From Bacteroidetes bacterium HGW-Bacteroidetes-17 (GTDB lineage: Bacteria > Bacteroidota > Bacteroidia > Bacteroidales > GCA-2711565), in NCBI GenBank assembly GCA_002840985.1, contig PHDM01000001.1, forward strand, positions 5,412 to 69,411: a stretch of 64,000 bases of DNA. The letters run 5' to 3'. Under the pieces are notes generated by a model. The model saw only the letters and a list, made by a program, of their open reading frames with translations, had not been told where the DNA came from and did not search any database. The translations under genes and the position numbers were made by a program. This document shows positions 4,104 through 48,121 of this stretch, in pieces. How positions within the stretch are numbered: the stretch's first letter is position 1; every line of letters begins with the position of its first letter.

Positions 4104-6605
4104 ATGAAAAAGACTACCTTCTTCATTATCCTAATCATTTTATTTGTTTCAGGCACAAAAATTTCATTTTCACAAAATTCTGAAAACTGGCTTGAAAAAA
4201 ACGACCCTATTTCTTATGCAAAATTGTATCTGCATACCGATCGAGACATTTATTTTCAGGGCGATACCATTTGGTTTAAGGCATATTACCTGAATGGGCA
4301 AACACAGGTTTTATGGCCCGGATTTTATAATTTATTTGTTGATATAGTGGATGAAAGTGGGAAAACCATCCACACTCAGGTATTGCCCATAACCAATGGC
4401 TTAAGCTCCGGGTATGTAAAAATCCATAATAAGTTAGAGTCGGGAAGCTATTTGTTGCGTGCACTTACAAATGCACAAAAGCAGATTGGCGAAGATGCTT
4501 ATTTTTATAAAACGATTGAAATCTTTAAGATTCGAAATTCACCAGCACCTGAAGATAAAAAAACGGAAGGGCAAACACAGGAGTCAGATGGTCCGGATAT
4601 TTCCTTTTTACCGGAAGGAGGCTTTTTGCTTGCAGGACAGGTCAATCTTGTTGGCATAAAAGCCATTAACCCGAGAGGAAAAGGACTGACGATAAAAGGG
4701 AAGGTTATTGATTCAAAAGGCAGGGTTGTTTCAACTTTCAGCACTGCTTATAAAGGATTGGGGAAGTTATATTTAAGCCCTCATGTTGGAGAAACTTATC
4801 GGGTGGAGATTGAAGAGTTCCCGGATTTCAAATATGAATTCAAGGAGGTTAAACAAGAAGGGATCAAGATTGAATTTATGAGTGACAGCAAGGAAGGATT
4901 GATATTCAGGTCAACGACCAACGCAGAAACATATAAAGAAAAGAATTATTACTTCGCCATCATGAACAAGGGAAGGGTTTTGTTTTATCAGAGGTTTACC
5001 CAAAGGAAAAATGATGCCTTGATTAAGGTAAACCCAACAGATTTACTTGGAGGGATCAATCGGGTCATTTTAATGGATGCACAACTGAAGCCAATTTCGG
5101 AAAGGCTCATTTTTTCAAATAACTATGAAATTAACCAAGTGCAAATTGTTTCAAATCAGGAACAATATCAATCAAGGAGCCGGGTTGATTTGGGAATTAT
5201 AGATGAAGAAGATATAGGAAATTCCTTCTCAAGTCTATCGCTTTCAGTAGTTGATGAAAATACGGTAGTGAAAAATGAACCTTCACTAAATATTTTATCA
5301 TATCTGTTGATTGACTCGGAACTAAAAGGAATTGTGGAATCGCCATCCGATTATTTTATTGATGATGAAAATATCTTCTCAGAAGAAAAACTAAACCTGC
5401 TTATGCTCACACAGGGATGGAGCAATTATGTATGGAATGGATTGACCTCTCAAAATACAAGCTTAACTTATTTAGAAGATGGAGGAATAACGATAAAAGG
5501 GAGGGTCAAGCGCTTGTTTAATCAGAATCCCGTTACTGGAGGAAATGTAATTTTAGGGATCATAAAGAATGGTTCTTTTGCAACTTATGAAGCGAAAACT
5601 GATATCGATGGGAGGTTTTTGTTTAAGGATATGATCCTTACCGATACTTCATCGATTTATGTTCAGGCTACGAACAGTAAAGGAAAGAAAGTTACAGAGG
5701 TAGTATTAGATTCGATTTTTGAGAAAAGCCCGATTGTTTCCGGGTTATTCCTGAAAGCTATAAAAAGCGACACCAAATTACCACCCTTATTGCATCGCAA
5801 TAAATATAACAGTGAATTGGCCATGACTGCGTATGATCCTAATTACAAAGGCATCATGCTTGAGGAAGTGATTGTTAAAGCAGATAGAATTGAAGAAGAT
5901 GATGTCGCTTTCAGAGTATATCCGAAACCGAGAGTATCTTTGAAACCCGGAGTTGAGGCAGCTTCGTATCCAGACGTCCTCAGTTACTTATCAGCCGGTG
6001 CACCAGGTGCAAGAGTAGCTAATGGGGAGATTGCCATTCGTGGCCTGGGAAGCTTTTCTAGCTCAGCTCCATTGTTTCTGGTTGATGGATTTCCTATATT
6101 TATTGTTCCAGCTGATAGTAGAGGAAGGTCACCCCATCCTGAAGCTGCAACATCTATTTATAACATTATTAAAAGTATTCCAATGATGGATATTGATCGG
6201 ATTGAAATATATAAAGATGCGAATGAAACGGCATGGTTTGGCATGAGAGGAATGCATGGGGTTATCTCAATTTATACCAAGCAAGGACCTGAGGATAGAA
6301 AAGAAAACCCTTACACTAAAGGGGCCATTGCATCAACTATTGTTGGTTATGCAGGCTACCGTGAGTTTTATTCACCAAAATATACGGTGGGGGATATTGA
6401 TTCAAAAAGACCGGACAACCGTGTCACTTTATACTGGAATCCAGATATCATTACCAAAAATGGCAAGGCTTCTTTATCCTTTTTTACCTCAGATGATATA
6501 GCGAACTATAAAATATTTGTAGAAGGAATAACCAATGATGGAAGGGTTTGTGTTGGGAACGCTGAATTTTCGGTTAATGAATATAGTCCTAAAATATTAA
6601 AATAA
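4104..6605 (+). CDS. Large secreted protein with MG2-like N-terminus, carboxypeptidase-regulatory-like domain and TonB-receptor Plug-like domain (no obvious barrel)
   Basis: Signal peptide MKKTTFFIILIILFVSGTKISFSQ. YLHTDRDIYFQGDTIWFKAY block (macroglobulin MG2-like). GGITIKGRVK..GGNVILG..TDIDGRFLF block (CarbopepD_reg-like). IAIRGLGSFSSSAPLFLVDGFPI block (Plug-like). Confidence 0.6.
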   Translation: MKKTTFFIILIILFVSGTKISFSQNSENWLEKNDPISYAKLYLHTDRDIYFQGDTIWFKAYYLNGQTQVLWPGFYNLFVDIVDESGKTIHTQVLPITNGLSSGYVKIHNKLESGSYLLRALTNAQKQIGEDAYFYKTIEIFKIRNSPAPEDKKTEGQTQESDGPDISFLPEGGFLLAGQVNLVGIKAINPRGKGLTIKGKVIDSKGRVVSTFSTAYKGLGKLYLSPHVGETYRVEIEEFPDFKYEFKEVKQEGIKIEFMSDSKEGLIFRSTTNAETYKEKNYYFAIMNKGRVLFYQRFTQRKNDALIKVNPTDLLGGINRVILMDAQLKPISERLIFSNNYEINQVQIVSNQEQYQSRSRVDLGIIDEEDIGNSFSSLSLSVVDENTVVKNEPSLNILSYLLIDSELKGIVESPSDYFIDDENIFSEEKLNLLMLTQGWSNYVWNGLTSQNTSLTYLEDGGITIKGRVKRLFNQNPVTGGNVILGIIKNGSFATYEAKTDIDGRFLFKDMILTDTSSIYVQATNSKGKKVTEVVLDSIFEKSPIVSGLFLKAIKSDTKLPPLLHRNKYNSELAMTAYDPNYKGIMLEEVIVKADRIEEDDVAFRVYPKPRVSLKPGVEAASYPDVLSYLSAGAPGARVANGEIAIRGLGSFSSSAPLFLVDGFPIFIVPADSRGRSPHPEAATSIYNIIKSIPMMDIDRIEIYKDANETAWFGMRGMHGVISIYTKQGPEDRKENPYTKGAIASTIVGYAGYREFYSPKYTVGDIDSKRPDNRVTLYWNPDIITKNGKASLSFFTSDDIANYKIFVEGITNDGRVCVGNAEFSVNEYSPKILK

Positions 6606-35981: not shown

Positions 35982-36329
35982 TTATTCTAAATCAATAATT
36001 ATTTGTATGTTTTCTTTGACCAATTCTATCAAGTTCTTTGGTAAGTCTCCAACTTTATTTATTAGTCTTTTATTATCTATGGAACGAATTTGATCGATCA
36101 TGACATCGCAGTCCTGATTTAGATCAGCCATTCCTTTTTTTAGATGAACTCTTAATATTTCAGAGTCCTTTTTTATGTTTGTCGTGATAGGACAAACAAT
36201 AGTTGAAGGATGAGGGATTTTGTTCAGCAAATTAGTCTGGACGACTAAAACAGGTCTGGTTTTCCCAGGTTCTGTTCCAATCTGTGGATTTAGGTCAGCT
36301 ATCCATATTTCAAATTGTTTAATCAACAT
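35982..36329 (-). CDS. Type II toxin, PemK/MazF-family mRNA interferase
   Basis: IKQFEIWIADLNPQIGTEPGKTRPVLVVQTN..CPITT is the MazF/PemK fold signature. The ATG at 36329 is preferred and overlaps the antitoxin stop by 11 nt. Confidence 0.85.
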   Translation of the reverse strand: MLIKQFEIWIADLNPQIGTEPGKTRPVLVVQTNLLNKIPHPSTIVCPITTNIKKDSEILRVHLKKGMADLNQDCDVMIDQIRSIDNKRLINKVGDLPKNLIELVKENIQIIIDLE

Positions 36330-36549
36330 ATTCAATCTCCTCAAAATCTTTAAGTACAGACATTGAATCACTTTTAACTAATTCTGATTCGCTCTTTAGT
36401 TTTTTCTCAATAATTAATCGTCTCTGAATTTGGTTGTAATATTCCAGAGCCTCGTTAATATACCTATTTCTAGGTTTTTTCATTCTCAAGAGAATTTTTT
36501 CAGTTTCCACGAAAATAGAATCGTCAATTTTTAATGAGATAGTTTTCAT
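36319..36549 (-). CDS. Antitoxin, ribbon-helix-helix (CopG-like)
   Basis: 76 aa. MKTISLKIDDSIF...RNRYINEALEYY (RHH beta-strand + helices). Located immediately upstream of, and overlapping, the MazF-like gene. Confidence 0.7.
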   Translation of the reverse strand: MKTISLKIDDSIFVETEKILLRMKKPRNRYINEALEYYNQIQRRLIIEKKLKSESELVKSDSMSVLKDFEEIEYVD

Positions 36550-36609
36550 AATATTTTTGTTTTATACCACAAAAGTATATCATAAAAGCATATACTCCAA
36601 GTCTTTTTT

Positions 36610-36730
36610 GCATGCGGCATAACGGTTTGGAGCGCAGCGCATTTTGCGGCAGGTTTTCCTTTCCCCCGAGGGACAGGAAACAATACGAAAACCCTAAGGT
36701 TTTTATACCTGGCTTAGCGCCATGCTTTAT
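36610..36730. repeat. Cassette-boundary repeat A (long palindromic variant)
   Basis: GCATGCGGCATAACGGTTTGGAGCGC ... GGTTTTTATACCTGGCTTAGCGCCATGCTTTAT. Inner 11-bp hairpin TTTCCTTTCCC (36655-36665) / GGGACAGGAAA (36670-36680). Its ends resemble repeats B, C and D. Confidence 0.55.
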
Positions 36731-36755
36731 GATCCTTTGTAATGTAACTTTAATA

Positions 36756-37877
36756 TTAGTTTTTTGTCATGTATTGACTGATTTTTTTTTCGAAATTTCC
36801 AGTAAAATAACCTTCCCACTGTTCGACAATTTTTCCTTCGGGATTTATTAAAAAATATGTAGGAAATCCCAAAATTCCATATTTAAAACCAATTCCTGCA
36901 ATTATGCCTTTGCTATCAGAAATGTTTACCCAAGGAACATCATCTCTTTTTAAGCCTTCCTCCCAAATTTCTTCTTTTGTGTCAAGATTAAAACCTACAA
37001 TTATTAAATTATCTGTGTATTTTGAATGAATCTCTTTTAATTCCGGGATTGATTGAATACAAGGACCACAATTTGTTGCCCAAAAATCAATAAGTATATA
37101 TTTACCTTTAAAATCTGATAATTTGAATCTATTACCATTAATATCATATCCTTCAAAATCTGTTAGCTGATCACCTACTTGGGGTGGTTCTTGTTTGTTC
37201 AGAATGGATAATATTCCTTCAGCATACAAGGAATGAATATAGGTTGAATCAAATCTCTTATATACTTCACTTACTCTATCTTTTGGGATACTATTTTTAG
37301 AGGCAAGAATATAATAAAGCTTTTCTATAGCAATAAAACTGTTAGGCTTTTTTTCAATAGCATTAAATTCGATGCTGTTTTTGATTTTGTAAATTGAATC
37401 AATTTTAAAATTTACAACTTTAATAATATCTTTATTCTCTCTGTTTTTTGATCGAATTAATGCAAGGCTATCAATCTTTCTGGATAAATGTTTCGTGTTT
37501 TGAGTTATTTCATTTAAAATCTTTTGTTCAACCGTTTCACTTTCAACTGACCAAGATGATAAAAAAATGTTATCTCCTTTTACAAATATTTTTTGATAAT
37601 CAACCCATAGATCACAAGTTCCTCTAAAATTATTATAATCTCGAATCATTAAATACATTTTAATGGGGCTTTGAGATAACGTGTCTGAAAATTCAAAATA
37701 TCCATCAAAGATTGTATCAGTTTTAATTCTACTAGCTGATCCATCGTTTTCTGCATAAAGATCGATTATCGTTTCATTAGGTATGTTTCTGAGTTGACCC
37801 GAGATAACATATTTTTCTTGTTTTTTTTGACAAGATATTATGCTTATTAATAAGAGAATAAATAAGATTTTTTTCAT
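36756..37877 (-). CDS. TlpA/AhpC-TSA family thiol:disulfide oxidoreductase lipoprotein
   Basis: Lipobox LLISIISC. N-terminal beta domain, then a thioredoxin fold with FWATNCGPC (CxxC) and GFPTYFLINPEGKIV. Confidence 0.8.
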   Translation of the reverse strand: MKKILFILLLISIISCQKKQEKYVISGQLRNIPNETIIDLYAENDGSASRIKTDTIFDGYFEFSDTLSQSPIKMYLMIRDYNNFRGTCDLWVDYQKIFVKGDNIFLSSWSVESETVEQKILNEITQNTKHLSRKIDSLALIRSKNRENKDIIKVVNFKIDSIYKIKNSIEFNAIEKKPNSFIAIEKLYYILASKNSIPKDRVSEVYKRFDSTYIHSLYAEGILSILNKQEPPQVGDQLTDFEGYDINGNRFKLSDFKGKYILIDFWATNCGPCIQSIPELKEIHSKYTDNLIIVGFNLDTKEEIWEEGLKRDDVPWVNISDSKGIIAGIGFKYGILGFPTYFLINPEGKIVEQWEGYFTGNFEKKISQYMTKN

Positions 37878-37907
37878 AACAATTTAAATTTGTGTTCTTT
37901 AATTTTT

Positions 37908-37964
37908 ACACAACGTTTCAGCCGGGTAAGAATCCGCAAATGTTTTATAGCCTTTTTTATGCGC
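37908..37964. repeat. Cassette-boundary repeat B
   Basis: ACACAACG-TTTCAGCCGGGTAAGAATCCGCAAATGTTTTATAGCC-ttttt-TATGCGC. The 37-nt core is 33/37 identical to repeat C. Confidence 0.7.
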
Positions 37965-38015
37965 TGTTACTTATTATTAATTTCAAAACAGTCTTTTAAA
38001 TTTCTACAAAAATTA

Positions 38016-38552
38016 TTAATTTGGGTCTGAGAATTCATCAACTTCAATTAGTTCAACTTCAAATACTACAGTATATTTTTCTTTTAGTTTCGGTATGATG
38101 GCCCAGTTCATGGCATCATGCCCAATAGAGGGAATATTTAAGTATTCAATTTTTATTGAATACTTAATTGTTTTATTTAATGGGTTGTCAATTATTCTGT
38201 AGTTAAAACGTACATAGCTGCTCGGTGTATGAATATATTTCCCAATGATAGATTGTTTGTTAAAATCAAATGGAGGTAATGTAGCTGTTTCACACCCAAT
38301 CTGGTTTCTGCTAAGCTGAGCAATTGTATATGCACCAAATTCTTGATAGGCTGCATTATCAGTAAAAATTACCTCCCTTTGATATGCTTCACCTTTAGGA
38401 CTAAAGCAATTATAGAATGGATGGTTAATAAAATCAACTTGATCTGTAATGTCAGTAATGAATAAATCTTCTTTGTCATTACAAGTTGTAAAGAGCAAAA
38501 TAAAAAAAACACTTATCAGATTAAGATAAATGAAGAAATTTCGATTTTTCAT
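38016..38552 (-). CDS. Hypothetical lipoprotein
   Basis: 178 aa, lipobox LLFTTC, no recognisable domain. AT-rich. Confidence 0.6.
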   Translation of the reverse strand: MKNRNFFIYLNLISVFFILLFTTCNDKEDLFITDITDQVDFINHPFYNCFSPKGEAYQREVIFTDNAAYQEFGAYTIAQLSRNQIGCETATLPPFDFNKQSIIGKYIHTPSSYVRFNYRIIDNPLNKTIKYSIKIEYLNIPSIGHDAMNWAIIPKLKEKYTVVFEVELIEVDEFSDPN

Positions 38553-38570
38553 GGTTTATAATGTTTAATT

Positions 38571-38626
38571 GCGCATAGCGTTTCAGCCGGGTACAAACCC
38601 GCCAATGTTTTATAGCCGTTGTCGTG
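38571..38626. repeat. Cassette-boundary repeat C
   Basis: GCGCATA-gcg-TTTCAGCCGGGTACAAACCCGCCAATGTTTTATAGCC-GTTGTCGTG. Abuts the stop codon of the Roco gene. Confidence 0.7.
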
Positions 38627-38627
38627 T

Positions 38628-40592
38628 TTAGTTTTTTTTCATTTTCTTAAAATAGTCTTCAATTAACTTATTTATATTTATACCAAGACCAAAAAAGTTT
38701 GGTTGAAGCAATATGTATTTGTTAATTTGTTTTTTTGCAATCTCAGGATCATTATATTGTTTAGAAATTTCTGAGACAATTTTGTGAATTTCCTTAATTA
38801 ATTCTTTTTCATCTTCAATTGGTTCAAAATATCCCAGTAATTTACTTATTTCTATATCGCTAATACTTTTTAAGCATTCAATAGTTTTCTTGTTTTTTGA
38901 CTGAAACTTTCGCAAAGTGGAATAATTAAATAAGTGTGGATTATTAGACTCTTTACATTCTTCACAAATGCAATGAATCATTTCATTTACTTCTGGATTG
39001 TTTAAAGATTTATGAATATAATTCATGTCTTTTCTGATGATACTTAGAACGTCTGATTTATTTTCTCCATAAATAAATACATTGATTTTTTTATTTAAAT
39101 AGTCATTAATCAAAAGTGCTTGTGAACCTTCGTACATGATCAAAACTCCGTTTCTCCAAAAAATCTTATTTTTAATCAAATGATGATTTAATACAATAAA
39201 TCTTGTAAGAATAGCTTTGGGCATGAAAGAATAGTGATATTCAAATTTTAGATTATTTTGATAATCCCAAGGTATTTTTTCTATTGATTCAGGCAGTAAT
39301 TCAGGAATAATATATTCTTTAGAATCTGAGATTTCAAAACATAACTCAAATTTTTTCATGAGTTCCAATAAATATATATGGTTTTCTCTTGGGTAACTCT
39401 TCCAAAATGTGAGCAAGTCATTATAGTTAAACTGTCCAAAATTTTCAATAACCTCTTTCGTGTCTGTTAAAGAATAGACTGCATTTGTTGCCCATTCAGG
39501 TTTTAAGAAAATTATTTCTTTTAATATTGGATTTCCTTGAAAATGCAAGAATACACCCAAATCATGATAATATCTACTGAGAAATAAGGCTGAGCTCTCG
39601 TCAAGTGCATAATCAGAACAAATAGAGATGTATTCATTGAAATTCAAATAGTTTTTCTCCAGCGATTGTAAATGAATTCTTATATCAATCCATGCCTTTG
39701 GTAAAGAGTCTCCAATATGTTCAAGTTTAAATACTTCACTTTTAATACATTCAATTAAGCTTTCAATCCCAATATTGTTTTTTGCGCTAACATTATAAAA
39801 CCCAACAATGTTTGGGAAGTATTTCATTAGGCTTTTTTCATCTAAATTTTTAACTCTTTTATCAACTTTATTCTGAACTATAATAACTGGGGATGAATCA
39901 CTTAAAAGTTTAATAATGTTTAACCAATAATCTATACTAATATATTTATCTTCTTTTATTGAATCCCAAACAAAAATATATAAAGATCGTTTTGTTAAAA
40001 AAAACTGATGAGTTGAATGATATATTTCTTGTCCACCAAAATCCCAAATATTAATTTTAAAGTCATTTATATCATTGATATCTAATTTTAGTGTTTTTAT
40101 TTCAATTCCTTCTGTAGATGTGATTTCTTTGTTAAAGTTATTGTAAAGAATCCTATGCATCAAGGTGCTTTTTCCAACATATCCTTCTCCAACAATTAAT
40201 AGTTTTGCTTCAAACACTTTAGATTCATCAGATTCTAATTGTATGAAATAATTTTTAATTGCATCAAGACCTTGATTTACTATTTCAATTGGTGGTTCAA
40301 TCAAAGGATTGCCGCTAATTTCAAGTCTTTTCAAGTTTGGTAGAAAAACTAACTCTTTTGGAATTTTTTTTATTGAGTTATAACTTAATTTAATGCTTTC
40401 TAAATTCTCAAGTATTTTAATGTCTTTCGGAATTTCTGTAATATCATTATCAACCAAGTCAATAGATTTTAACCAAGAGAATTCCAATAAATCTATTGGG
40501 AAATAATTAAGTTGAATACCACTTAAATATATGTCTTTAATGACTTTGTTATCCTTAACTATTTTAAGTATATTTTTTGCTTCTAGATTCAT
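38628..40592 (-). CDS. Roco-family protein: LRR + Roc (Ras-of-complex) GTPase + COR domain
   Basis: About 4 N-terminal LRRs (LKSIDLVDNDITEIP, LESIKLSYNSIKKIP, LKRLEISGNPL). GTPase motifs LLIVGEGYVGKST (G1), WDFGGQ (G3), VQNKVD (G4), VSAK (G5). A long COR-like region follows, with a C-terminal CICEECK cluster. Confidence 0.8.
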   Translation of the reverse strand: MNLEAKNILKIVKDNKVIKDIYLSGIQLNYFPIDLLEFSWLKSIDLVDNDITEIPKDIKILENLESIKLSYNSIKKIPKELVFLPNLKRLEISGNPLIEPPIEIVNQGLDAIKNYFIQLESDESKVFEAKLLIVGEGYVGKSTLMHRILYNNFNKEITSTEGIEIKTLKLDINDINDFKINIWDFGGQEIYHSTHQFFLTKRSLYIFVWDSIKEDKYISIDYWLNIIKLLSDSSPVIIVQNKVDKRVKNLDEKSLMKYFPNIVGFYNVSAKNNIGIESLIECIKSEVFKLEHIGDSLPKAWIDIRIHLQSLEKNYLNFNEYISICSDYALDESSALFLSRYYHDLGVFLHFQGNPILKEIIFLKPEWATNAVYSLTDTKEVIENFGQFNYNDLLTFWKSYPRENHIYLLELMKKFELCFEISDSKEYIIPELLPESIEKIPWDYQNNLKFEYHYSFMPKAILTRFIVLNHHLIKNKIFWRNGVLIMYEGSQALLINDYLNKKINVFIYGENKSDVLSIIRKDMNYIHKSLNNPEVNEMIHCICEECKESNNPHLFNYSTLRKFQSKNKKTIECLKSISDIEISKLLGYFEPIEDEKELIKEIHKIVSEISKQYNDPEIAKKQINKYILLQPNFFGLGININKLIEDYFKKMKKN

Positions 40593-40869
40593 ATATTTTT
40601 AATACAGTTCTTAGTTTGATGGTATCGCTTTAAAAATTAAACACAACTAGTATATCTATTCATGTTTACAGAACAATACATCCCGTATTCGCGTGTATCA
40701 TTCATATTTCGTATAATTTTATTTATAAAATTTTTAATCATTCATCATGATTTAAATTTTTAAACGGGGAGAAAGTCAAATATATAAAAAAATATGATGC
40801 CTTCATTAAATGGTTTTTGATTAATGTAAGGTGATCGGTAGGAAAGTTATTTGAGTAAATTATCATTGA

Positions 40870-41026
40870 GACTTCTCGAAAATATAAATGGGAGAAGTCA
40901 AAAAAAAAATAAGACTTCTCTAAAGTAGAGCTTCAGGGACGACGTCCCCGGATGGGGACGTTGTCCCTCATATGGGACTTCTCAAAAATATAAATGAGAG
41001 AAGTCAAAATTGAAATGGGAGAAGTC
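40870..41026. repeat. GACTTCTC / GAGAAGTC hairpin-iteron array flanking a 15-bp GC-rich hairpin
   Basis: Two 36-nt hairpin units GACTTCTC-N14-GAGAAGTC (40870-40899 and 40976-41005). Lone GACTTCTC at 40913-40920. Lone GAGAAGTC at 41019-41026. Central hairpin AGGGACGACGTCCCC (40935-40949) / GGGGACGTTGTCCCT (40954-40968). Confidence 0.85.
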
Positions 41027-41170: not shown

Positions 41171-41830
41171 TTATGAATCGAGCGTAGTTATCTTGATGAA
41201 TTTTTCGGAGCCGGTCATTGATATTCCACATCGCTTTGGGGATTCGGTATCGTAGGTATTTCCACAGGTAGGACATACATAAAACACGCTTGGCAATGAG
41301 CTCACTTTATTGTTTTCTAATGCAGCAAGTGCATTTTCGTAAAGCGGTTTGTGCTTTTGTTCGGTTTTATAAGCATAATTCAAGCTTATCAGTGCGAATT
41401 GATTTCCTGCTTTATTTGCGTTGACCAAAAATTCGGGATACATGGTGGTGATTTCATAAGTCTCACCTTTAATTGCATCCATCAAATTTTCTTTGGTAGA
41501 ATTTACAGTAAATTCAGGGGTAAATTCAGGTGCTTTTTGTCCGCCTTCGGTTAATACGGCCTTGTGATTATTGGCATGTATTTTCTCCGAAATAGAAGCT
41601 GTTTTAAATAATAATGCAATTTCGTGGTATCCTTCTGCTTCTGCTTTTTTGCTGTATTCAGCGTACTTGGCACTTGCAGTGGTTTCACCAATGTAAGCCG
41701 ATTTCATGTTTTCGAAATTCAAGGTTTTTGCATCTTGTGCGTTTGCCTGTTTTTCGTTACTGATGCTTGTGAACGATTGCAACAATATTGCTGTTGCAGC
41801 TAAAATCATAATTATTGATATTTTTTTCAT
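41171..41830 (-). CDS. Rubrerythrin-family (ferritin-like di-iron) protein with N-terminal signal peptide and degenerate C-terminal rubredoxin-like tail
   Basis: Signal-like MKKISIIMILAATAILLQSFTSIS. IGETTASAKYAEYSKKAEAEGYHEIA, two ExxH motifs (SEKIH, EQKH). C-terminus YVCPTCGNTY..KRCG has only 3 Cys. Confidence 0.75.
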   Translation of the reverse strand: MKKISIIMILAATAILLQSFTSISNEKQANAQDAKTLNFENMKSAYIGETTASAKYAEYSKKAEAEGYHEIALLFKTASISEKIHANNHKAVLTEGGQKAPEFTPEFTVNSTKENLMDAIKGETYEITTMYPEFLVNANKAGNQFALISLNYAYKTEQKHKPLYENALAALENNKVSSLPSVFYVCPTCGNTYDTESPKRCGISMTGSEKFIKITTLDS

Positions 41831-44705: not shown

Positions 44706-45818
44706 TCAAACAATTTGCCCCTGATCTATAATAAGTTTATCCCCTTCTTGAATTCGTTTGTAATGACAAAACAACAAATCCCCATTTTCTTCATTGCGAA
44801 GGTGCATGCCGTTTCCTTCACAGTATTTAAAAAATTCACAATCGGCGCATTCACCGGTCCTTGTCCAGCTTCGATCCCTGAATTTGGCGTATTTGTTTTC
44901 CCAGATCTCTTTAAAACTGTCGGTATAAATATTACCTTGTATGAAATTGGACCTTAAATTCGGGCAGGCCGAAATGGAGCCATCGATAAGAACGGATGCA
45001 ATATTTATTCCGGCCCTGCAAAAGAATAAATTATCCCTGACTTCGGCCTCATAAGCACCTAAAAATCCTTCACAGCCATAATTGAGCTTGATATGACCCT
45101 TTTTACGTTCGGCTGCCATGAAATCGAAAAGTTGCTTAAACTGAACCGGATTTAATTGCAATTCTTCATATTCTTTAGCTCTTCCGATAGGAAAAACGGT
45201 AAATATGCGCCACTCTTTTAACCCTTTTGAAAGGAGCAGTTCTTTTATTTTTCCCAGTTCATGAAAGTTTTTTTGATTTACACAGGTCACCACATCGAAT
45301 CTCAGGTCGGGGATTTTTGCCAGGAGCCCGATTGCACTGACTGCTTTTTCAAAACTATGTGGATTGCCCCTCAGCCAATTATGCGATTCTTCCAGTCCAT
45401 CCAGACTGATGGTAACCGACCTTAGCCCCGCTTCCAGTAAAGAGCTGATCCGGCTCGGTGTTAGATGAAGTCCGTTCGAAACCATCCCCCAGGGAAAACC
45501 CCGGTCGTAAAGTTGTTTTCCGCAAACTTCCAGGTCTTTTCGCAAAAGTGGTTCGCCTCCGGTAAAAACGATCATGGTATTGTTCGGTTCAACGATGCTT
45601 TTAATGTCCTCAATGGCTCCGATAAAATCCTTGATGGGCATGTCTTTAACCATCGCATCTTTGGTGCAATCGCTGCCGCAATGCAAACAGTTGAGGTTGC
45701 ATCGAAGGGTACATTCCCAAAATATATAACTCAGTTGGTGGGTTTTTTTCGCATTGTTCCGGTACTTTTTAAAAAGTTCCAGTGCCATTTTTTTACGCAA
45801 GGAGAGTTTTAAACTCAT
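44706..45818 (-). CDS. Radical SAM / SPASM-domain protein (lipoprotein-associated)
   Basis: CTLRCNLNCLHC (CX3CX2C), GGEPLL, C-terminal auxiliary-cluster cysteines FFCRAG..ACPN..GECADCEFFKYCEG..FCH. The start overlaps the upstream lipoprotein stop (ATGA). Confidence 0.9.
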   Translation of the reverse strand: MSLKLSLRKKMALELFKKYRNNAKKTHQLSYIFWECTLRCNLNCLHCGSDCTKDAMVKDMPIKDFIGAIEDIKSIVEPNNTMIVFTGGEPLLRKDLEVCGKQLYDRGFPWGMVSNGLHLTPSRISSLLEAGLRSVTISLDGLEESHNWLRGNPHSFEKAVSAIGLLAKIPDLRFDVVTCVNQKNFHELGKIKELLLSKGLKEWRIFTVFPIGRAKEYEELQLNPVQFKQLFDFMAAERKKGHIKLNYGCEGFLGAYEAEVRDNLFFCRAGINIASVLIDGSISACPNLRSNFIQGNIYTDSFKEIWENKYAKFRDRSWTRTGECADCEFFKYCEGNGMHLRNEENGDLLFCHYKRIQEGDKLIIDQGQIV

Positions 45819-46270
45819 GATTCTTCTTTCAGTTTGATGTTCATTTCTTTGGAAGTTTCGCCTTTATACCAACTTTCTCCTCCTTCAAATACGGGGTTAA
45901 TGAATTTAACGGTCGTGTCTTTTGCCTGATAGCTTCCATGAGCAGCACCGTCAATGTCTTTAAATTCTAAGATATAATTATGATCCCTTGGAAAATCGGC
46001 AATACGTACTTCATAATTCCCGTAATAATCAGAAATGACTGTATCAGGCAATGGATATATTTGTTCGGATTTCATAATAACCCTTATTGCGGGTATATTA
46101 ATCCCATTTTCAGAAGTAACCTTGCCATAAACTTTAAAAGTTGCATATGGACTTCCATATTCGATACCACCAGATGGTATCTTGAATTTAGTGCAAGATG
46201 CTCCAAATCCTAAAATGGTCAAAAGAAATGCAATAAATAAATTGTATTTCTTTAGTGCTGCTTGTTTCAT
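45815..46270 (-). CDS. rSAM-associated putative lipoprotein, paralog 1
   Basis: Lipobox LGFGASC. Shares the YGSPYATFKVYGKVTSENGINIPAIRVIM, DYYGNYEV, FKDIDG and KDTTVKF...WYKGETSKEMNIKLK blocks with the next two genes. Confidence 0.85.
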   Translation of the reverse strand: MKQAALKKYNLFIAFLLTILGFGASCTKFKIPSGGIEYGSPYATFKVYGKVTSENGINIPAIRVIMKSEQIYPLPDTVISDYYGNYEVRIADFPRDHNYILEFKDIDGAAHGSYQAKDTTVKFINPVFEGGESWYKGETSKEMNIKLKEES

Positions 46271-46320
46271 TTTAATGCATTAATTAGGTTTATAGGTTGT
46301 TAAACTGCCTGTACAATATA

Positions 46321-46806
46321 TTATTCTCCTTCTTTTTTTAGCTTGATGTTTACTTCTTTAGATGCCTCACCTACATACCATGCACCTCCATTCTCAAACT
46401 TCGGATCAACAAACTTAATGATTGTATCTTTGGTTTGATAGGATTTTAAAGCTAACCCATCTGTATCCTCAAATTTTAAATTATAATCCATTTTGCCTCT
46501 ATCATCCATAAGTCTCACCTGATAATTACCATAATAATCTGCAATGCTTGTATCTGAATTTGTATAGGTGGCAAAGCTTGTGTCAGAAATTGGATAGGAA
46601 TAATCAGCCGACATAATAACCTTGATGGCTGGTATTCTCACCCCATCTTCTGAAGTGACCTTACCATAAATCCTGAATCCTGCACTTGGAGTTCCGTAAC
46701 CAGGACTGACCTCTTCTTTTGAGCAGGCAGTTCCGAATCCTAAAATGGTTAAGAGAAATGCAATGAATAAATTGTATTTCTTTAGGGTAAATTTTTTCAT
46801 TTTCAT
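46321..46806 (-). CDS. rSAM-associated putative lipoprotein, paralog 2
   Basis: Lipobox LGFGTAC. Same conserved blocks, with an 11-aa insertion (SFATYTNSDTS). Confidence 0.85.
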   Translation of the reverse strand: MKMKKFTLKKYNLFIAFLLTILGFGTACSKEEVSPGYGTPSAGFRIYGKVTSEDGVRIPAIKVIMSADYSYPISDTSFATYTNSDTSIADYYGNYQVRLMDDRGKMDYNLKFEDTDGLALKSYQTKDTIIKFVDPKFENGGAWYVGEASKEVNIKLKKEGE

Positions 46807-46852
46807 GAATTAATTTGAGTGATTGTGTATCGTAACACTAATACACAATATA

Positions 46853-47305
46853 TTATTCTCCTTCTTTTTTTAGTTTGATGTTCACTTCTTTGGAAGCTTC
46901 ACCCCGATACCATCCATTTCCGTTTTCATATATTGGATCTTTAAACTTAATAATGGTATCCTTTGTTTGAAAGCTTCCATGAGCTTCGCCGTCGATATCT
47001 TCAAATTTAAGAGGAAAATCATTGAAGTAATATGAAGAATCAAGAACCTTTACTTCATAATTCCCATCATAATCAGAAATTACCGTATCAGATTCCTGAT
47101 GAATACTTGCTGACATGATCACCATGATTGCTGGTATTTTTTCACCCTCTTCAGAAGTGACTTTGCCATAGACTTTGAAAGTTGCATGTGGTGTTCCATA
47201 AGCTGACATCGTTTCTTCTTCTTGCTTCGTGCAAGATGTAAATCCTAAAATTGAAAGCAGGAAGGCAATAATTATATTATGCGTTTTGATCAATCTTAGT
47301 TTCAT
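46853..47305 (-). CDS. rSAM-associated putative lipoprotein, paralog 3
   Basis: Lipobox LGFTSC. Same conserved blocks. Its 3' end and downstream 12 nt are near-identical to paralog 2 at the DNA level. Confidence 0.85.
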   Translation of the reverse strand: MKLRLIKTHNIIIAFLLSILGFTSCTKQEEETMSAYGTPHATFKVYGKVTSEEGEKIPAIMVIMSASIHQESDTVISDYDGNYEVKVLDSSYYFNDFPLKFEDIDGEAHGSFQTKDTIIKFKDPIYENGNGWYRGEASKEVNIKLKKEGE

Positions 47306-47765: not shown

Positions 47766-48121
47766 ATTTCTTAAATAATATTACAAATTTACCATTTAGC
47801 CAGTACTTTTTTATAAAGAATTTGGTAAAGTTAACCCCAATTTCTGCTTTGAGCTATCAGCCAGTTCGCTTATCATTTCGGATGCTGTGTATCCCCCATT
47901 GCCTAAATTTCGTTGGAACATGCTATTTTATGTGATAACCAACTGATATTATGGCATCGGGATTATAAAACACCTGTATCTGCTGCATTTCTCTTTACCG
48001 ATATGCTGCCCCTATCGGGGCAATGCACGTTGAATTTCATTTACTCAATCTCTATTTTATCAATTTCTTTCATTCCTGCAAAAAATCCAATTTCTAAATT
48101 ATTTTTGCTAAAAAGCCATCA

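Follow-up and report, generated by a model that had tools for sequence, protein, structure and literature searches.

Three tandem lipoprotein genes coupled to a radical SAM/SPASM enzyme in a Bacteroidales genome, with a conserved X-Tyr-Gly-x-Pro motif as candidate modification site

The subject of this report is a four-gene locus of Bacteroidetes bacterium HGW-Bacteroidetes-17 (Bacteroidales), contained in a stretch of 64,000 nucleotides (positions 5,412 to 69,411 of contig PHDM01000001.1), hereafter the window. Between positions 44706 and 47305 of the window, three lipoprotein genes and a gene for a radical S-adenosylmethionine (rSAM) enzyme with a SPASM domain follow one another on the minus strand. 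The open reading frame (ORF) listing places the putative precursors lipoprotein 1 at 46853-47305 (150 amino acids, aa), lipoprotein 2 at 46321-46806 (161 aa) and lipoprotein 3 at 45815-46270 (151 aa). All three belong to TIGR04134, "radical SAM-associated putative lipoprotein", whose cutoff of 39.8 bits they exceed with 123, 102.2 and 107.5 bits, respectively. The fourth ORF (44706-45818, 370 aa), a putative maturase, belongs to TIGR04133, "rSAM_w_lipo"; it scores 589.9 bits against a cutoff of 425, and its residues 7-357 span profile positions 1-350 of 350. The signal peptides of lipoproteins 1, 2 and 3 are at 47231-47305, 46723-46806 and 46193-46270, with a predicted helix at residues 3-19 of lipoprotein 1, and the respective lipoboxes read LGFTSC, LGFGTAC and LGFGASC. 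The TGA stop of lipoprotein 3 overlaps the ATG of the enzyme gene in the sequence ATGA (45815-45818, minus), indicating translational coupling of the two. A preliminary description of this DNA had given the four minus-strand ORFs, the lipoboxes, the shared sequence blocks, the overlap and the CNLNCLHC motif of the enzyme, all of which are present as described, and both family models that it had named recognize the proteins in question.

The enzyme carries CNLNCLHC and CADCEFFKYCEG, and is matched in Pfam by PF04055 (Radical_SAM, 63.8 bits) and PF13186 (SPASM, 44.6 bits, residues 267-328). In an alignment of 27 homologues, the cysteines of the CX3CX2C radical SAM cluster motif (C40-NLN-C44-LH-C47; 45678-45701, minus) are invariant, as are the seven cysteines C249, C267, C285, C324, C327, C333 and C351 of the SPASM auxiliary-cluster region (44766-45074, minus). 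The invariant set also includes cysteines beyond the expected ones, namely C51, C179 and C249. The SPASM-type cluster of the preliminary description is therefore correct as a region, but the canonical CX2CX5CX3C arrangement is not complete: its fourth cysteine is replaced by a nearly invariant Gly337 (C-AD-C-EFFKY-C-EGN-G) and is missing across the 27 homologues. It may thus be that one auxiliary cluster is ligated in an unusual way or has a coordination site left open, and C249 may substitute for the absent cysteine. An AlphaFold2 model of the enzyme has a predicted template-modelling score of 0.86, and its best full-length structural matches are the anaerobic sulfatase-maturating enzyme (anSME), SuiB and PqqE, with template-modelling (TM) scores of 0.6-0.69. 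In the model, the fold is that expected of peptide- and protein-modifying SPASM enzymes. No RRE domain is present, and residues 7-26 form an additional N-terminal helix not found in the splicease PlpX, which is considered below. The enzyme is far more conserved than its partner: its best 120 clusters are at least 65% identical and lipoprotein homologues 30-60%.

The three lipoproteins are 58-63% identical to one another (63% between lipoproteins 1 and 2), with a mean column identity of 72%. Away from the conserved ends, DNA identity between the paralogues falls to 41-80% when taken in blocks of 15 codons, which marks the duplication as old. Identity at the DNA level is elevated only over the last ~68 nucleotides (nt) of lipoproteins 1 and 2 and over the first ~99 nt of lipoproteins 2 and 3 (82%). 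The first of these regions is the 3' repeat (46313-46380 versus 46845-46912) from which recent duplication or gene conversion had been proposed. It exists, reaches 12 nt past the stop codon and is identical at 60 of 68 positions, not 58 of 68; any recent exchange would be local to the gene ends at most. The G+C content of the lipoprotein genes (0.35) is lower than that of the coupled enzyme gene (0.42).

To place the locus in context, the genomic neighborhoods of the enzyme family were surveyed with one genome per species and 80 loci kept, and neighbors were scored with hidden Markov models (HMMs) built from our own alignments. Relatives of the enzyme occur in at least 591 species-level genomes, mostly of Bacteroidales and Marinilabiliales, but also in Persicobacter (Cytophagia) and in a few metagenome-assembled genomes (MAGs) labelled Fibrobacter. 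At 75 of the 77 loci having upstream DNA, the gene immediately preceding the enzyme, in the same orientation, encodes a family lipoprotein, which bears out the co-occurrence proposed in the preliminary description. The junction between the two genes overlaps at 52 of these 75 loci, by 4 nt at 42 and by 1 nt at 10. Approached from the lipoprotein side, one locus shows the canonical arrangement, another has a lipoprotein on either side of the enzyme with both junctions overlapping, and at a third the contig ends where the enzyme is expected. The search for a third conserved gene was negative, with no other neighbor family in more than 5 of 81 loci. DUF2200, suspected earlier of being linked to the lipoprotein genes, is no conserved partner and is local context together with DUF2231, the two-component system and penicillin amidase, each found at 5 of 81 loci or fewer.

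One lipoprotein copy is present at 61 loci, two at 11 and three at 3, the window included; one further locus (L051) has four tandem copies, one of which is degenerate. The partner family, which comprises 1,964 clusters at 50% identity (E <= 1e-10), also includes proteins with two or three fused domains. The triplication had been seen as a sign that a surface-exposed product has diversified. It is instead one end of a copy-number range, uncommon and not unique to this locus, and multiplied precursors beside one maturase, whether as one to four copies or as fused repeats, look like typical precursor behavior. In gene order, strand and coupling, as in its scores on both models, the locus is a typical member of the TIGR04133/TIGR04134 system, from which it differs in having three precursor copies in place of the usual one. 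It thus belongs to a catalogued two-gene module known from co-occurrence only. Homologues carry the TIGR04133 and TIGR04134 names in the annotations of JGI and NCBI; these are placeholder names for a pair defined by co-occurrence only, with no function, site or chemistry assigned. A search of a literature library found no paper dealing with TIGR04133 or TIGR04134. The name TIGR04134 does appear once, in the review PMC11611037, for a C-terminal domain model of the type B type IX secretion system (T9SS), apparently through a typographical error, since the model of that name is the one for the rSAM-associated lipoprotein.

Because of the known families, the pairing at 75 of 77 loci, the lack of a third gene and the SPASM fold, the module fits a two-component pair of precursor and maturase acting before export. 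On these sequence grounds, we consider it probable, with good confidence, that the lipoprotein precursors are the substrates of the enzyme. A contrasting possibility is that the enzyme acts on a small molecule, such as a tetrapyrrole in the manner of AhbD and NirJ, and that the exported protein is a partner, for example a binder of the product. This would agree with the foreign NCBIfam models that score highest on the window enzyme, as AhbD (heme b synthase) reaches 153 bits and NirJ-type models are close behind (NirJ2, 129 bits), and with the weak resemblance of the lipoprotein fold to intradiol dioxygenase and transthyretin-like binding folds. However, these scores are far below the cutoffs of 500 bits. 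Since PlpX too scores 124 bits on the AhbD model, the match is broad and non-specific, and appears to reflect a neighborhood of sequence space shared with PlpX and no specific link. No heme or heme d1 gene, nor any conserved tetrapyrrole, transporter or other pathway gene, is found nearby. The partner of the enzyme is here an exported protein, so a cytoplasmic enzyme would share a compartment with it only before export. A binding protein would also fit poorly with the conserved overlap of stop and start codons, with precursors in several copies and with the mini-precursors described below, which have no domain, and we regard a non-protein substrate as unlikely.

The conservation of the partner was examined in 89 non-redundant rSAM-linked lipoproteins. 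The only residues conserved in all of them are the Tyr, Gly and Pro of the motif E-Y-G-x-P-x-A (Y36, G37 and P39 in lipoprotein 1), one glycine of the signal peptide and two glycines of the folded domain. W132 and G135 follow at 98-99%, and D103 and D105 at 91-92%. In the window, where the three lipoproteins are the only carriers of X-Y-G-x-P, the motif reads AYGTP in lipoprotein 1 (A35-Y36-G37-T38-P39; 47189-47203), GYGTP in lipoprotein 2 (G36-Y37-G38-T39-P40; 46687-46701) and EYGSP in lipoprotein 3 (E37-Y38-G39-S40-P41; 46148-46162), all read from the codons of the minus strand. Although it opens the first of the shared blocks, this most conserved feature had not been singled out in the preliminary description. 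The residue X before the tyrosine is Glu in 66 of 88 sequences, Met in 13, Ala in 4, Lys in 2 and Gly in 1, with Gln and Thr also occurring. The residue at +2 from the tyrosine is T, V, S, C, A, M or L, and so always has a C-beta. An ORF with YG.P directly precedes the enzyme gene at 75 of 79 loci, whereas among 500 background ORFs only 1 has it. Of the four exceptions, three have technical causes, namely two contigs that are truncated and a start-call artefact; the fourth is L051, where the motif is gone from the ORF next to the enzyme and retained in three copies farther upstream.

Mean pairwise identity is 69% in the motif, 40.7% in signal-peptide positions 1-22, 39.2% in the folded domain and 21.6% in the linker. 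The signal peptide, with its pattern ..N..I.FLLS.LGF.., is thus conserved about as much as the mature domain, which is unusual, and its helix may double as a leader-like docking helix. Pfam reports for the three lipoproteins only a weak CarboxypepD_reg match in lipoprotein 1. An AlphaFold2 model of the same protein (mean predicted local distance difference test score 84) begins with the signal-peptide helix, continues through a linker without order and ends in a beta-sandwich at residues 40-148, which has a generic transthyretin/CarboxypepD_reg-like fold. The Y-G-x-P motif is modelled in coil before strand 1 and is predicted to be accessible, in a flexible segment between the lipobox cysteine and that strand.

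Several outlying precursors help to define what accompanies the enzyme. Two mini-precursors, each encoded immediately before a genuine TIGR04133 gene, consist of a signal peptide and lipobox without the beta-sandwich and resemble precursors of RiPPs, peptides that ribosomes make and that are modified after translation. The first (L061, 5730-5972) is an 80-aa ORF ending in two tandem motifs, TPKYGMPISKYGMPPSVWN. The second (L068, 6106-6381) is a 91-aa ORF with a signal peptide, a cysteine, the segment ..SCMYGVPKSNF.. and a low-complexity tail, and neither matched any model in the family search. In two Paludibacteraceae/Bacteroidales rumen MAGs (L064, 7679-11074, and L071), a 262-aa precursor has, besides the TIGR04134 domain, a sorting domain of T9SS type A; it has no lipobox cysteine, retains LLYGCPYAHYKF and is followed by two tandem TIGR04133 genes (559 and 567 bits). 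In fused TIGR04134-type proteins of two or three domains (P0166, P0167, P0174, P0198, P0181, P0190 and P0250), most internal domains have an EYGxP of their own, and eight internal repeats of fused proteins retain it without signal peptide or cysteine. Since the motif persists in domain-less, cysteine-less and T9SS precursors, what the enzyme is obligatorily paired with is a secretion signal together with X-Y-G-x-P, and neither the lipoprotein domain nor the cysteine. The logic of an adjacent maturase and substrate, on which the preliminary description had relied, is still plausible, but the lipoprotein as such is not what is conserved. The recognition of signal peptide plus X-Tyr-Gly-x-Pro as the constant companion of the enzyme is what is new here.

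The same precursors bear on the proposal that the chemistry is directed at cysteine. Each window lipoprotein has a single cysteine (residues 25, 28 and 26 in lipoproteins 1, 2 and 3), from which the preliminary description had derived either a non-thioether modification or one at the future lipidated cysteine. The count is right for the window and does not hold for the family, as 44 of 87 homologues have at least one further cysteine; the non-thioether branch is favored, and the lipobox-directed one is unlikely. A thioether (sactionine or ranthionine) or other change at the lipobox cysteine, possibly with that cysteine ligating an open site of auxiliary cluster I, is made conceivable by the missing fourth SPASM cysteine and by the distance of 5-9 residues from cysteine to tyrosine in most members. 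Yet the position of the cysteine is not conserved, the T9SS-type precursors lack one before the motif, and the internal repeats without cysteine keep the motif. Lipidation by Lgt requires a free thiol, and a thioether would block it. C249 may also supply the missing SPASM ligand. On the whole, this chemistry is highly improbable. Known sactipeptide and ranthipeptide maturases also differ from the present system, in which the precursor core has no conserved donor cysteine.

From its conservation, we regard X-Y-G-x-P as the probable modification site, a claim held with somewhat less assurance than that of the substrate itself. The motif might instead be kept for structure or sorting while the enzyme acts elsewhere, for instance at Trp132/Gly135 or at the F-E-D-I-D-G loop. 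Such sites are suggested by the 91-99% conservation of W132, G135, D103 and D105, and residues 34-39, next to the domain, are probably modelled with moderate confidence. In five degenerate internal repeats of the fused proteins, YGxP and the C-terminal Trp are both missing, and because the two are lost together, the motif could owe some of its conservation to structure. Against action elsewhere, both mini-precursors keep signal peptide and XYGxP while lacking the beta-sandwich, the Trp context and the DIDG loop, and seven first-domain units of fused proteins keep YGxP without the Trp. A modification site outside the motif is therefore judged improbable.

Among known rSAM/SPASM enzymes, the tyramine spliceases act at a motif of this kind. 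They excise tyramine at X-Tyr-Gly, accept protein substrates and dock the leader helix of the precursor on the enzyme, and their spliceotide products are inhibitory to proteases of the serine and cysteine classes (PMC11414181, PMC11626197, PMC9811515, PMC10849128). Binary systems of enzyme and precursor, such as RhaX/RhaA, RcsX and RasX, are known in addition to PlpX/PlpY and PcpXY (PMC11414181; PMC11626197). The PlpX sequence, machine-read from a supplement (PMC9484694), scores 677 bits on TIGR04103, which identifies this model as the splicease family. On the same model, the window enzyme scores 131 bits over its full length against a cutoff of 725 and so is not a member of the PlpX family (TIGR04103/IPR026482); on the sister model TIGR03913, it scores 122 bits. 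In the reverse direction, PlpX scores 103 bits on TIGR04133 over its full length. Our own profile of the enzyme family gives PlpX 103 bits, compared with 63 for BlsE, 57 for SkfB, 40.7 for anSME and 32 for PqqE, and BLASTP aligns the window enzyme with PlpX at 25% identity over 363 aa (E = 1e-28). By these sequence comparisons, the PlpX family is the nearest relative of the window enzyme with an experimentally established peptide substrate.

The precursors offer further parallels. As in spliceotide systems, an rSAM/SPASM enzyme stands beside at least one precursor with X-Tyr-Gly (here AYG, GYG and EYG), the architecture is binary without a third gene, and the putative substrates are protein-sized. 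The motif of PlpA1, LYGLP, has the same Y-G-x-P spacing. In the first spliceases, X is natively Met or Leu, and Met occupies X in 13 of the 88 sequences here. The differences are equally apparent: in place of peptides with Nif11 or NHLP leaders, the precursors have a beta-sandwich and are either lipoproteins exported by Sec or cargo of the T9SS, X is mostly Glu, Pro at +3 is invariant, one SPASM cysteine is missing and the enzyme has an extra N-terminal helix. A search for TIGR04103, and for spliceases with lipoproteins or in Bacteroidota, returned no relevant literature. Taking these likenesses together with the known specificity of spliceases, we propose by analogy that the chemistry may be tyramine splicing before export, leaving a ketoamide in the backbone, and put the probability of this at roughly 40%.

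A number of observations weigh against splicing. The window enzyme is only 25% identical to PlpX, fails the TIGR04103 cutoff and differs from PlpX in its SPASM cysteine pattern, in which the fourth cysteine is missing. The models for AhbD and TIGR04053 (140 bits) score slightly higher on it than TIGR04103, so splicing is not picked out by homology alone. The closer PlpX sister, TIGR03913, is associated with a different motif, "GDL", which means that even enzymes more closely related to PlpX differ in their target motifs. The N-terminal helix was considered as a built-in PlpY-like element of the enzyme, and BLASTP against PcpY found no similarity. The leader role that the signal peptide may have is argued from one kind of evidence, its conservation. 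Finally, one splicease left an acidic DYG site unmodified (PMC11626197), and X is here mostly Glu.

A different chemistry at the same site of the same pair has accordingly to be weighed, such as epimerization at the C-alpha of Tyr or Gly, oxidation at the C-beta of Tyr, or a triceptide-like cyclophane joining the Tyr ring to the C-beta at +2. The evidence for pairing and motif applies equally to all of these, the +2 residue always offers the C-beta that a cyclophane would use, and a chemistry other than splicing would suit an enzyme so remote from PlpX and with so unusual a set of SPASM cysteines. The rSAM/SPASM enzymes are moreover chemically diverse, and many families score 60-150 bits on the window enzyme. 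On the other hand, tyramine splicing is the only known rSAM peptide chemistry that specifically needs Tyr-Gly, and the logic of cyclophanes and epimerases leaves the invariant Gly at +1 unexplained. Models of triceptide, epimerase and crosslinking maturases also score lower than the PlpX family. A non-splicing chemistry at the motif is a reading nearly as likely as tyramine splicing.

Other known chemistries were considered and set aside. The enzyme anSME provides a precedent for a cytoplasmic rSAM enzyme that acts on a short motif of a protein still unfolded and not yet exported by Sec. Like the window enzyme, which is a 370-aa rSAM/SPASM protein without RRE, it has the relevant architecture, and it is the best full-length structural match (PDB 4K36-4K39; TM 0.67/0.69). 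In sequence, the similarity is weak, and anSME-like formylglycine formation is rejected as the window precursors have no (C/S)-x-P-x-R motif or sulfatase domain and are not sulfatases. A Glu-Tyr crosslink of the PqqE type is disfavored, given that X is Glu in only 66 of 88 sequences and is Ala or Gly in two window paralogues; the PqqE model scores 63 bits on the window enzyme. A long-range crosslink between Tyr36 and Trp132, suggested by their joint loss in degenerate repeats, is disfavored too. The two residues are ~96 positions apart in a chain that must cross SecYEG unfolded, the mini-precursors lack the Trp context, and the seven units with YGxP lack the Trp.

If tyramine splicing is the chemistry, the module could work as follows. 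The three tandem genes would yield Sec-exported pre-lipoproteins, and the coupled cytoplasmic TIGR04133 enzyme would bind the unfolded precursor before export, possibly through the helix of the signal peptide. Its target would be the invariant X-Tyr-Gly-x-Pro between the lipobox cysteine and strand 1. Excision of a tyramine equivalent (C8H9NO, ~-135.07 Da) from X-Y-G, as performed by spliceases, would leave an electrophilic alpha-keto-beta-amino acid, the ketoamide, in the backbone. After export and lipidation, this group would be separated from the lipid anchor by ~10-12 residues. If the likeness to spliceotides extends to function, the spliced lipoprotein might be a membrane-anchored inhibitor of serine and cysteine proteases, which is speculative. 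A further extension, which is doubtful, is that a Bacteroidota-wide class of exported proteins comprising lipoproteins, T9SS cargo and mini-precursors is tyramine-spliced near the anchor, with the signal peptide serving as a RiPP-style leader.

The analysis narrows an open-ended association of an rSAM enzyme with a neighboring lipoprotein to one residue-level prediction, for a module that spans gut, oral, rumen and marine lineages of Bacteroidota. Modification of this site would mean that radical SAM enzymes tailor exported envelope proteins other than sulfatases as well. If the modification is splicing, it would be the first of the spliceotide type in envelope proteins, and the cell surface would gain an electrophilic warhead, for instance as part of an anchored protease inhibitor. 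It would also make X-Y-G-x-P and its enzymes a source of compact new splice tags for protein engineering. The survey of Scott et al. (2022; Chem 8:2659) is reported to have mined all rSAM-SPASM enzymes for YG-rich neighbors, across 189 genera (PMC10849128), and the TIGR04133 class may already be listed there.

Some features of the exported lipoproteins are of separate interest. The residues following the lipobox cysteine are acidic in lipoprotein 1 (CTKQEEE, 47216-47230) and lipoprotein 2 (CSKEE, 46708-46722) but not in lipoprotein 3 (CTKFKIP). We take such acidic residues to resemble the surface-export signal of Bacteroidota lipoproteins. At least two Asp or Glu residues occur at positions +2 to +7 after the cysteine in 34 of 87 family members. 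Since lipoprotein 3 lacks the acidic segment present in lipoproteins 1 and 2, the paralogues may end on different faces of the outer membrane. In the beta-sandwich of lipoprotein 1, D73-T74-V75 (47081-47089) and D116-T117-I118 (46952-46960) match D-(S/T)-(A/I/L/V/M/T), presumably the general O-glycosylation sequon of Bacteroidota, and matches are found in 66 and 59 of 90 members, respectively. The exported domain is probably O-glycosylated, judging from these sites.

With respect to transcription, the sigma-70 consensus is not applicable to promoters of Bacteroidota. The sequence TAAATTTG, which we take to be a Bacteroidota-type -7 promoter motif, occurs at 47784-47791 (minus), ~20 nt upstream of the DUF2200 start. 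As no -7-type motif is found between DUF2200 and lipoprotein 1, it is possible that the lipoprotein genes are co-transcribed from the DUF2200 promoter. Across the window, the count of TAnnTTTG does not exceed chance (77 versus 85 expected), and a terminator scan found none on the minus strand.

Two observations concern other parts of the window. The stretch from 36000 to 41000 has a low G+C content of 0.28-0.32 and may be an acquired island; it includes a 654-aa LRR-Roc-COR (ROCO-type) GTPase (38628-40592, minus), a thioredoxin-fold lipoprotein (36756-37877) and a 178-aa protein without a Pfam match. Beyond it lies the gene for a rubrerythrin-domain protein (41171-41830, minus) whose N-terminal hydrophobic segment, MKKISIIMILAATAILLQSFTS, resembles a signal peptide, an unusual start for a rubrerythrin-domain protein, as these are normally cytoplasmic.

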